Of a DNA stretch of 61,701 nt, positions 49,380 through 49,800 are shown in pieces. The DNA comes from Clostridiales bacterium UBA1742. Lineage in GTDB: Bacteria; Bacillota; Clostridia; TANB77; CAG-508. The stretch covers positions 1-61,701 of the forward strand of contig DCHW01000063.1 of NCBI GenBank assembly GCA_002314935.1. The letters run 5' to 3'. The translations under genes and the position numbers were made by a program. The notes beneath the pieces are model-generated. The model was not told the origin of the DNA. It worked only from the letters and a program-made list of their open reading frames with translations, and did no database searches. Position 1 is the first letter of the stretch. Every line of letters begins with the position of its first letter.

Positions 49380-49381
49380 AA

Positions 49382-49410
49382 TTGAATTAATTTACATAAT
49401 GTGATATAAT
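49382..49410 (+). promoter_or_regulatory. near-consensus extended -10 promoter
   Basis: TTGAAT (49382-87), 17-nt spacer including TG (49402-03), TATAAT (49405-10). Confidence 0.65.
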
Positions 49411-49469
49411 TAAAGTATCGAGAGCGTCTTTAGATGCATTTCGAAATAAAAAGAAAGGAGTGTGTTAAA

Positions 49470-49760
49470 ATGAACGCACTCGGAGAAAAAATTTTTAAAA
49501 TAGGTTGCGATTTGATTGCAACCTATGTAGAACTCTCTGTTGAAGAGACTAGAAAGGAGGAAGTGGGCAAATGGATTAAGGCTTTTGAAGCCGACATTTA
49601 TTCAGCTGATAATAAGAAAACGGTGCCGGTAACGGCAATAAACCGGTTTCAGGTTACCCCTCTTCCGGAGGAGGTGACAAGGTTCCTATCAATTTCAGGT
49701 TATAACCTGAAATTGATAGGAGAGGGTAGCAATGCCCAATATTACCTCCTTCTTAAATAA
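49470..49760 (+). CDS. 96-aa orphan ORF inside a G+C-rich unit (could instead be a structured RNA)
   Basis: ATG 49470 after RBS AAAGGAG. Open for 96 codons. Contains a 0-frame CGG and a perfect 36-nt palindrome (49685-49720). One hand-counted line (49621-49680) is 34/60 G+C. Confidence 0.45.
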   Translation: MNALGEKIFKIGCDLIATYVELSVEETRKEEVGKWIKAFEADIYSADNKKTVPVTAINRFQVTPLPEEVTRFLSISGYNLKLIGEGSNAQYYLLLK

Positions 49761-49766
49761 AACTTT

Positions 49767-49800
49767 CCCCCTGTTGGAGTTTTTCAACAAGGGGGTTTTA
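49767..49800. terminator. strong, probably bidirectional terminator
   Basis: CCCCCTGTTG / CAACAAGGGGG stem, followed by TTTTA and preceded by AAAACTTT. Confidence 0.8.

Follow-up and report, generated by a model that had tools for sequence, protein, structure and literature searches.

A guanine-plus-cytosine (G+C)-rich unit located between ytvI and a gene encoding a DUF1980 C-terminal domain, within a 61.7-kb stretch of DNA from Clostridiales bacterium UBA1742 (contig DCHW01000063.1; the whole stretch is referred to here as the window, and has a mean G+C of 0.256 with a standard deviation of 0.049), is in all likelihood a real gene for a small protein, as opposed to a conserved RNA or DNA site. 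The gene, designated ORF96 after its open reading frame (ORF) of 96 codons, is associated with an uncommon property, namely extreme, lineage-specific folding of the predicted mRNA together with a perfect 38-nucleotide (nt) palindrome inside the coding sequence. A preliminary description of this DNA had left undecided whether the unit was an acquired small gene, a large non-coding RNA, or a recombination or operator site embedded in a gene.

The homology search of the 96-residue product proposed in that description yielded a full-length homologue, albeit in no known family. A word-indexed search of 5.8 billion protein clusters with ORF96 alone returned just ORF96 itself; the only homologue was missed by this approach and found by exhaustive HMMER searching alone, in which a protein of 98 residues (P0006) was identified among 1.84 billion representatives with an E-value of 7.3e-9. 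Pairwise BLASTP alignment of the two proteins is gap-free over 95 residues, with 38% identity (E = 3e-20). Returning a two-sequence profile to the word-indexed search gave matches to ORF96 and P0006 only, and an additional HMMER match, to a 672-residue ankyrin-like repeat protein (P0007, E = 9e-4), was discounted because it appeared to reflect the repeats and to be spurious.

P0006 and six near-identical variants are all encoded in the same genetic context, in which ytvI is followed by the 98-residue gene, the DUF1980 gene on the opposite strand and then secA, and this order is present in approximately 20 contigs of a sister lineage recovered from many samples (L031-L050). The flanking proteins of the window and sister lineage share 63% (YtvI), 65% (DUF1980) and 88% (SecA) identity, and orthology of ORF96 and P0006 is plausible at such divergence; we read ORF96 as the fastest-evolving member of this orthologous neighbourhood. 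Comparison of the two genes by codon position revealed nucleotide identities of 0.54, 0.57 and 0.38 at positions 1, 2 and 3, respectively, where chance identity is approximately 0.27-0.28, and the difference between positions 1 and 2 combined and position 3 is significant (Fisher p = 0.006). The reading frame remains open in both lineages despite a nucleotide divergence of around 50%; at each gene's own composition, a stop-free frame would arise by chance with a probability of 5e-4 (window gene) or 2e-4 (sister gene). Additionally, the position of the start codon and the Shine-Dalgarno (SD) sequence GAAAGGAG are kept in the sister lineage, whose unit has the same type of promoter, a terminator of its own and, as in the window, the sequence CUUUC directly after the stop codon.

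The ORF96 product (96 residues, isoelectric point 5.45, grand average of hydropathy (GRAVY) -0.10) is predicted to be a soluble protein with an alpha/beta fold. AlphaFold2 modelling from the two-sequence alignment gave a mean predicted local distance difference test score (pLDDT) of 80.4 and a predicted template modelling score of 0.65, whereas modelling from ORF96 alone was poor (pLDDT 59). In the better model, two long helices form a helical hairpin, after which comes a small strand-helix-strand-strand unit containing a beta-hairpin. No match below an E-value of 0.01 was obtained in Pfam, NCBIfam, PHROGs or PADLOC, and a sequence search of the PDB gave a best E-value of 0.18, with a weak match to B. 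subtilis YvyC at 0.27. Foldseek comparison of the two-sequence model was similarly uninformative, both against the PDB (best E = 0.12) and against BFVD (best E = 0.011, an uncharacterised phage protein). On the basis of these searches, ORF96 and P0006 appear to constitute an uncharacterised small-protein family of very narrow distribution, confined to two lineages of uncultured low-G+C gut Clostridia. Of the options left by the preliminary description, it is the small gene that is borne out, by the full-length syntenic homologue, the codon-position pattern, the retained SD sequence and start codon, and the confident AlphaFold2 model.

The composition of the gene is unusual also. G+C by codon position in ORF96 is 0.49/0.33/0.41, and the third-position value (GC3) of 0.41 compares with a window value, from 44 long ORFs, of 0.119 ± 0.02; in the sister lineage, GC3 is 0.32 for the orthologue and 0.13-0.20 for its neighbours. 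Since GC3 is raised in both orthologues, this appears to be a property of the gene in both lineages and not just the trace of a very recent transfer. The layout of the unit and its immediate flanks is as follows.

48291-49379, forward strand: ytvI (sporulation integral membrane protein, AI-2E transporter family), the left flank.
49382-49410, forward strand: putative sigma-A-type promoter with -35 element TTGAAT at 49382, a 17-nt spacer and extended -10 element TGaTATAAT (TATAAT at 49405); the spacer holds the motif ACATAATGTG, common to related units.
49453-49460, forward strand: SD sequence GAAAGGAG, which precedes the ATG by 9 nt and does not differ in the sister lineage.
49470-49760, forward strand: ORF96 coding sequence, 96 codons, ATG at 49470 to stop at 49760.
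49684-49721, forward strand: perfect 38-nt palindrome in the coding sequence, spanning the codons for FLSISGYNLKLIGE.
49767-49800, forward strand: intrinsic terminator, an 11-pair G+C-rich stem with one bulge, then TTTTATT.
49813-50352, reverse strand: convergent gene with a DUF1980 C-terminal domain, the right flank.

The terminator arms (CCCCCTGTTG at 49767 and CAACAAGGGGG at 49785) form a stem at 49767-49795 with a one-base bulge on the forward strand; it is situated between two convergent genes, and the terminator scan reports it on the reverse strand too. The gene following DUF1980 is secA, from 50459. The structural elements listed in the preliminary description are all present where it placed them. 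The promoter (TTGAAT-17(TG)-TATAAT at 49382-49410), the 96-codon ORF with a good ribosome binding site (ATG at 49470, with GAAAGGAG 9 nt upstream) and the strong terminator (the 49767-49795 stem, then TTTTATT) were all recovered, as were the short complementary motifs GGTAAC (49628) and GTTACC (49653), and AGGAGG (49555) and CCTCCT (49745). The claim that the unit is unusually rich in G+C is likewise correct, with 34 of 60 nt being G or C at 49621-49680, and the 200-nt G+C peak within the unit (0.44) being the highest of the window.

Next, the predicted folding of the ORF96 transcript was examined. The sense transcript (49416-49800) folds with an energy of -151.5 kcal/mol (z = -9.2 against dinucleotide shuffles), and z is still -6.2 when the palindrome and terminator are left out. 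The antisense strand folds with -121.5 kcal/mol, such that the sense strand is better by 30 kcal/mol, and the sense fold contains 14 G-U pairs compared with 4 in the antisense fold. This asymmetry in G-U pairs suggests that the structure matters in the RNA more than in the DNA, although a positive G-C skew contributes to it. Codons were also permuted synonymously among identical amino acids, a procedure that keeps the protein, the codon usage and GC3, with the following results.

Window unit: z -8.5 (native -151.5 versus -104.1 ± 5.6 kcal/mol).
Window coding sequence alone: z -7.1.
Window codons 1-71, upstream of the palindrome: z -3.4.
Sister unit: z -1.7.
Control segments (14) taken from other genes in the window: mean z -0.66, standard deviation 1.63.

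The suggestion that the RNA-like features exceed what the protein requires is therefore upheld, the permutation z for the unit being -8.5. The sister unit (G+C approximately 0.33-0.35) has a fold z of only -2.1 to -2.6 against shuffles. The principal elements of the predicted window fold, in addition to the palindrome and terminator, are these.

49418-49444, forward strand: predicted 5'-end hairpin of 11 pairs with one bulge, 1-2 nt from the putative transcription start.
49500-49526, forward strand: predicted 12-pair hairpin over the IGCDLIATY codons.
49555-49560, forward strand: AGGAGG, whose predicted pairing with CCUCCU at 49745-49750 would close a multi-branched domain.

Placed from the position of the -10 element, the transcription start would lie 1-2 nt before the 5' hairpin. 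The hairpin itself is not found in the sister lineage, where the alignment has gaps over that part of the 5' untranslated region (UTR). The SD sequence is paired in the predicted fold, with GAAAG pairing to CUUUC at 49763-49767 and GAG lying inside a hairpin at 49458-49481 that has the AUG in its loop; a GNRA-looped hairpin is predicted also. The sister version of the IGCDLIATY hairpin has 5-8 pairs, on conserved Cys (TGC) and Ala (GCA) codons.

Searches for known RNA families gave no support for the large non-coding RNA that the preliminary description had entertained. No Rfam 15 family matched the unit at its gathering score, and the best candidate in a permissive search of 48500-50800, a PyrR element (26 bits versus 54 required, E = 0.81), was rejected, being below threshold and with no pyr genes nearby; the related loci examined (L022, L023, L009, L012 and L014) were also without an Rfam match. 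With no family, and with an orthologous unit that folds ordinarily, a large conserved non-coding RNA is not supported. The sole match at gathering score in the window is a T-box leader (RF00230, 107 bits versus a gathering score of 93) at 17326-17574 on the forward strand.

Several other folding observations concern the unit or its surroundings. In a shuffle scan of the window in 200-nt windows the ORF96 element ranks second, and terminator windows elsewhere reach similar local values. The segments 35701-35900 (z = -8.2) and 47501-47700 (z = -7.0) are as extreme as the 3' part of the ORF96 unit; both lie at gene ends, the former at fba/smpB and the latter upstream of a 203-residue ORF, and are probably terminator hairpins. 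The 5' control piece of ytvI (48321-48608) is over-folded under synonymous permutation (z = -5.9), as is 48401-48600 in the shuffle scan (z = -5.7). By eye, the last ORF96 codons (49744-49755) read ACCUCCUUCUUA, which is not conserved in the sister and closely resembles the 3' end of Firmicute 16S rRNA (ACCUCCUUUCUA). This sequence could pair with the SD sequence of ORF96 itself, or with internal GGAGG at 49556 and 49667.

The palindrome was reported originally as a perfect 36-nt sequence, CCTATCAATTTCAGGTTATAACCTGAAATTGATAGG, at 49685-49720. Its perfection is confirmed, but one more base pairs on each side, such that the true extent is 38 nt (49684-49721). Arms of this length are without parallel in the window, in which the zero-spacer palindrome arms are 19 nt here and 9 nt in the next longest case, and as RNA the sequence is predicted to form a perfect hairpin of 18 pairs. 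Contigs from SRR5323857 and SRR1221442 (L027-L030, Logan) are 100% identical to the window on either side but end at 49713 or start at 49692, thereby overlapping by 22 nt, with both reading through the centre of the palindrome. Since the breaks sit where a de Bruijn graph with k = 31 must break at a 38-nt palindrome, the palindrome is not an assembly artefact, and the break leaves ORF96 truncated in those assemblies and absent from their protein sets. A chimeric assembly at this point is ruled out by the synteny in relatives and by the two independent samples.

The counterpart stretch of the sister gene encodes FLEKIGYTLKWNRE where the window has FLSISGYNLKLIGE, and its only inverted repeat is a GG-ATATA-CC nucleus at the equivalent position. 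The alignment of ORF96 with its homologue is gap-free across this stretch, and the differences comprise amino-acid replacements as well as synonymous changes. By our count, the sister matches just 8 of the 19 arm positions. The palindrome is single-copy in the window, when up to 3 mismatches are allowed, and a search of JGI metagenome contigs gave no exact match to it; being single-copy and adding no residues relative to the homologue, it is not a repeated or inserted palindromic element. An element of the IS200/IS605-like or PATE-like type, bounded by hairpins, was rejected also, since the 5' hairpin does not enclose the promoter, which is kept where that hairpin is absent. Programmed frameshifting was considered, but no slippery heptamer was seen by eye between the internal GGAGGAGG and the hairpin. 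The conserved DNA or RNA site envisaged in the preliminary description is not supported by the sister, which is without the palindrome, or by the window and the JGI metagenome collection, which hold no other copy. Moreover, the homologues are without the palindrome but keep the protein, which in essence is the pattern that the preliminary description named as marking a plain coding sequence, albeit with amino-acid replacements among the differences. The palindrome appears to be recent and specific to the window lineage, and most plausibly grew from the GG...CC nucleus that is also in the sister. Given that both arms keep residues shared with the sister, a single template-switch event is not a simple explanation, and a better fit than one copying event is that selection for pairing extended the arms step by step, wherever the protein tolerates change.

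A number of observations weigh against the interpretation of ORF96 as a protein gene whose mRNA structure is a late, lineage-specific addition. The gene is carried by two lineages only, which leaves little scope to judge conservation of RNA structure, and the raised GC3 of both orthologues is without a demonstrated cause. Among 8 distinct sister sequences, 7 of the 8 variable coding sites change an amino acid, a pattern that fits relaxed or diversifying selection and would lend weak support to a constrained protein. Two small hairpins in the coding sequence (SVEE; GC..IA) persist in the sister with 2-3 apparent compensatory changes, which may point to some RNA-level constraint common to both lineages, although with two lineages this is not significant. 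Within the palindrome, residues in common with the sister occur on both arms (F, L, G and Y on the left; Y, L and K on the right). Furthermore, we infer the promoter, transcription start, mRNA stability and translation of ORF96 from sequence, and a sequestered SD sequence and an 18-pair hairpin could equally argue for poor translation and for action as an RNA.

These points bear on several alternative explanations. That the transcript is a non-coding structured RNA with a fortuitous ORF is scarcely credible. Its high G+C in an A+T-rich genome, the fold z of -9.2, the promoter and terminator of its own and the failure of the word-indexed protein search to find a homologue would all suit such an RNA, but it would not account for a full-length, gap-free homologue at a syntenic site in which third codon positions are the least conserved, for a frame open in both lineages at around 50% nucleotide divergence with SD sequence and start kept, or for an AlphaFold2 pLDDT of 80, and there is neither an Rfam family nor a structure retained in the orthologue. 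A dual-function RNA, in which the transcript encodes the protein and acts also as a structured regulatory RNA, with the hairpins or the 16S 3'-end-like ACCUCCUU being functional, is improbable but less easily dismissed. Folding far beyond the needs of the protein (z = -8.5), the 30 kcal/mol advantage of the sense strand, the SD sequence and AUG sequestered in the predicted fold, and the over-folding of two other window units with the same promoter motif are all in keeping with it. Conversely, the ORF occupies 75% of the transcript, no Rfam match and no evident target or partner were found, and the sister orthologue is not unusually structured, such that any RNA function would have to be a recent innovation. 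A type I toxin mRNA of the hok-like kind was rejected, since the product is not a small hydrophobic peptide (96 residues, GRAVY -0.10, predicted soluble); for an antisense RNA, the promoter scan was the only search made.

Two further explanations concern the palindrome. It is very unlikely to be a DNA-level site, whether a cruciform, a site of recombination or resolution, or an operator bound by a dimeric regulator, even though its perfect 38-bp two-fold symmetry without spacer is far beyond chance (the next arm in the window being 9 nt) and such symmetry is expected of sites for DNA-binding dimers and of copying at the DNA level. Typical operators are much shorter than 38 nt. Moreover, the palindrome is absent from the orthologous gene, has no repeat in the window or the JGI metagenome contigs and no adjacent recombinase or regulator gene, and is 280 nt downstream of the promoter, where it is one of several transcript hairpins with G-U pairs, which fits RNA better. 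The other possibility, which is unlikely but less so, is that quasi-palindrome template switching produced the palindrome and the remaining near-perfect hairpins as neutral, functionless changes in a weakly constrained, recently acquired gene. Template switching is known to perfect imperfect inverted repeats (PMC7202029). The protein evolves fast (38% identity versus 63-88% for its neighbours, with 7 of 8 sister polymorphisms replacing an amino acid), the GG-ATATA-CC nucleus is present in the sister, and the palindrome is still perfect, suggesting youth. However, the retention of sister-shared residues by both arms would be an unlikely coincidence for a single copying event, and the occurrence on one transcript of several independent hairpins, a new 5'-terminal hairpin and SD pairing has a directional look; additionally, G-U pairs favour the sense strand and raised GC3 persists in both orthologues. 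Since this explanation concerns the origin of the structure and not the identity of the unit, it overlaps with the interpretation preferred here.

In that preferred interpretation, ORF96 forms a monocistronic unit and encodes a small, soluble protein that evolves quickly; it is served by a strong putative sigma-A-type promoter with an extended -10 element and by an intrinsic terminator. The mRNA of the window lineage would have been remodelled to a compact, hairpin-rich form, with a hairpin at the 5' end, the SD sequence and AUG held in a hairpin and in pairing between the 5' and 3' UTRs, and several long hairpins of the coding sequence, including that of 18 pairs at the palindrome, which together with the terminator would complete a structured mRNA. 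Such a structure could feasibly act at the RNA level, by protecting the transcript from decay that depends on the 5' end and from endonucleolytic decay, thereby making it long-lived, and could gate the translation of ORF96. The palindrome would be the latest addition, having arisen via selection for pairing or by quasi-palindrome template-switch mutation. Precedents exist for each of these effects: a 5' stem-loop in the aprE leader stabilises a Bacillus mRNA (Hambraeus et al. 2002, cited in the review PMC3997798), an interaction between the 5' and 3' UTRs of hbs mRNA couples stability to translation, as outlined in PMC5737220, and template switching at quasi-palindromes turns imperfect inverted repeats perfect (PMC7202029). 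Granted that ORF96 is a small-protein gene, a role of its mRNA structure in stabilisation or translational control is offered as a tentative proposal that is rather less likely than not to be correct.

The immediate consequence of the analysis is that an annotation question is taken to be settled, in that an RNA-looking G+C-rich island in a 26% G+C genome is a lineage-restricted small-protein gene. The breaks at the ORF96 locus in de Bruijn assemblies of this organism are likewise accounted for by the palindrome. The orthologue pair, which differs drastically in mRNA folding (z of -8.5 versus -1.7 by synonymous permutation), would allow selection for mRNA hairpins to be tested against their creation by template switching.

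The position occupied by ORF96 was examined also in 25 related loci from genome representatives, with YtvI proteins 48-60% identical, in which the gap at the ytvI/DUF1980 junction varies from 15 nt to 3.2 kb. In a distant group, with SecA around 73% identical, the junction is empty (15-150 nt), whereas in a closer group (SecA approximately 81-88% identical) it holds unrelated cargo, which by translation includes MBL-fold hydrolase, cytidylyltransferase-like, PHP-domain, kinase-like, HD-domain and ParB-like genes. The variable gaps and cargo mark the junction out as a small-cargo hotspot of the clade, and ORF96 was plausibly acquired by the closer group. The term acquired, as used in the preliminary description, is accordingly reasonable, in view of the near-empty junction in distant relatives and a GC3 of 0.41 versus 0.12.

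Three of the junctions (L022, L023 and L014) hold small G+C-rich ORFs with raised GC3 and a terminator of their own. The first has a single ORF of 189 residues (L022, 5081-5787), the second three tandem paralogues of 191, 194 and 178 residues, each with its own copy of the promoter (L023, 5081-7172), and the third an ORF of 85 residues (L014, 5092-5499). The promoters of L022 and L023 are homologous to that of ORF96, reading TTGCAT-aaatagACATAATGTGgTATAAT. The motif ACATAADRTGNTATAAT occurs three times in the window compared with 0.07 expected, and in 50 fetched loci sits only before these junction units. The 190-residue family (P0002-P0005) forms four 90%-identity clusters among 5.8 billion and has no Pfam match; with identities between L022 and L023 of 0.87/0.93/0.74 by codon position and 37 codons that differ synonymously only, it reads clearly as protein-coding. 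Local resemblance exists between ORF96 and this family (EEVTRFLSISGYNLKL...YYLL versus EWVTKLLEGTGFAIRE...YYLV), for which hhalign gave P = 0.14 with the single ORF96 sequence and 0.029 with the two-sequence profile, over 28-29 columns. Neither this similarity nor that of ORF96 to the 85-residue ORF (hhalign P = 0.09) is significant, and BLASTP found nothing. The shared promoter and position would suggest a common origin of the units, though not necessarily of the proteins.

Wider searches with the unit were negative. Comparison with 26 syntenic loci from genome representatives by blastn and nhmmer matched the promoter alone, and a phage DNA search returned only promoter-like stretches, such as those at the ends of Clostridium perfringens podophage genomes. 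A plasmid DNA search returned nothing, viral contigs were without a match to the DNA pattern or to protein profiles of ORF96, the L022 family and a 103-residue ORF described below, and a protein-profile scan of JGI metagenome contigs gave no match. Two observations were made of the DNA upstream of the unit. An Asn/Tyr-rich ORF of 203 residues at 47623-48234 (forward strand), upstream of ytvI, has no family match and is conserved in most related loci, where it occupies the corresponding site with 29-52% identity. In four sister contigs (L033, L034, L040 and L047) ytvI is called with 306-310 residues, not 349, and an overlapping antisense ORF of 71-79 residues is called at its 3' end, which hints at a frameshift or polymorphism within ytvI, immediately upstream of the unit.

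Two divergent small ORFs that resemble the ORF96 unit in promoter and composition are located at 42585-43463, between uvrB (40714-42534) and uvrA (43532 onward).

42585-42974, reverse strand: ORF of 118-129 residues.
43152-43463, forward strand: ORF of 103 residues.

The two have back-to-back promoters with the ORF96 motif (ACATAATATGGTAAAAT and ACATAATGTTGTATAAT), and raised G+C, with a GC3 of 0.24 versus 0.12. Both are over-folded, with z of -6.7 by shuffling and -6.7 by synonymous permutation for 42585-42974, and of -5.2 and -2.5, respectively, for 43152-43463. Neither has a Pfam or PADLOC match, and no relative of the 103-residue ORF was found in viral contigs. These data hint that ORF96 and the uvrB-uvrA ORFs form a small class with a common promoter motif and over-folding. 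The common promoter type and the raised GC3 across the junction cargo and the two window units similarly hint at common regulation or a common source. It is conceivable, though improbable, that units with the promoter type ACATAATRTGnTATAAT (ORF96 and the two uvrB-uvrA ORFs) specify long-lived, dual-function RNAs that are folded beyond coding needs. Were that the case, the perfect 18-pair hairpin of ORF96 might serve in processing or regulation, for instance as a site for a double-strand-specific RNase or as a ribosome gate.

Several known systems invite comparison. The closest in position are the 190-residue family (P0002-P0005) and the 85-residue L014 ORF, which occupy the same ytvI/DUF1980 site and have raised G+C, although the former differs two-fold in length from ORF96 and homology is not demonstrated. 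With regard to its RNA, ORF96 can be likened to the aprE leader and hbs mRNA of Bacillus, which are likewise monocistronic, encode small proteins and have a strong SD sequence; the likeness extends to a stem-loop at the extreme 5' end, a predicted 5-bp pairing of GAAAG with CUUUC between the UTRs, and a strong terminator. There is, however, no sequence relationship to either, the ORF96 structure pervades the coding sequence, its 5' hairpin is missing in the orthologue, and all of these elements are predicted. RNAIII/hld of S. aureus and SR1/SR1P of B. subtilis are mirrored by ORF96 in being self-contained, highly structured transcripts of a few hundred nt with an ORF, but in those RNAs an ORF of 26-39 codons makes up little of the molecule and relatives share the structure, whereas ORF96 accounts for 75% of its transcript and the structure is not conserved in the orthologue. 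The palindrome itself resembles Rickettsia palindromic elements, REP/MITE-like repeats and integron attC sites in being palindromic, able to form hairpins and situated within or beside coding sequence; such elements, however, are inserted in many copies and add residues, while that of ORF96 is gap-free against the homologue and single-copy in the window. Finally, quasi-palindrome template-switch hotspots of E. coli and yeast (PMC7202029) undergo multiple simultaneous changes, which would explain a flawless 19+19-nt palindrome, yet the known events correct existing short repeats, and in ORF96 the sister matches only 8 of 19 positions and both arms keep residues.

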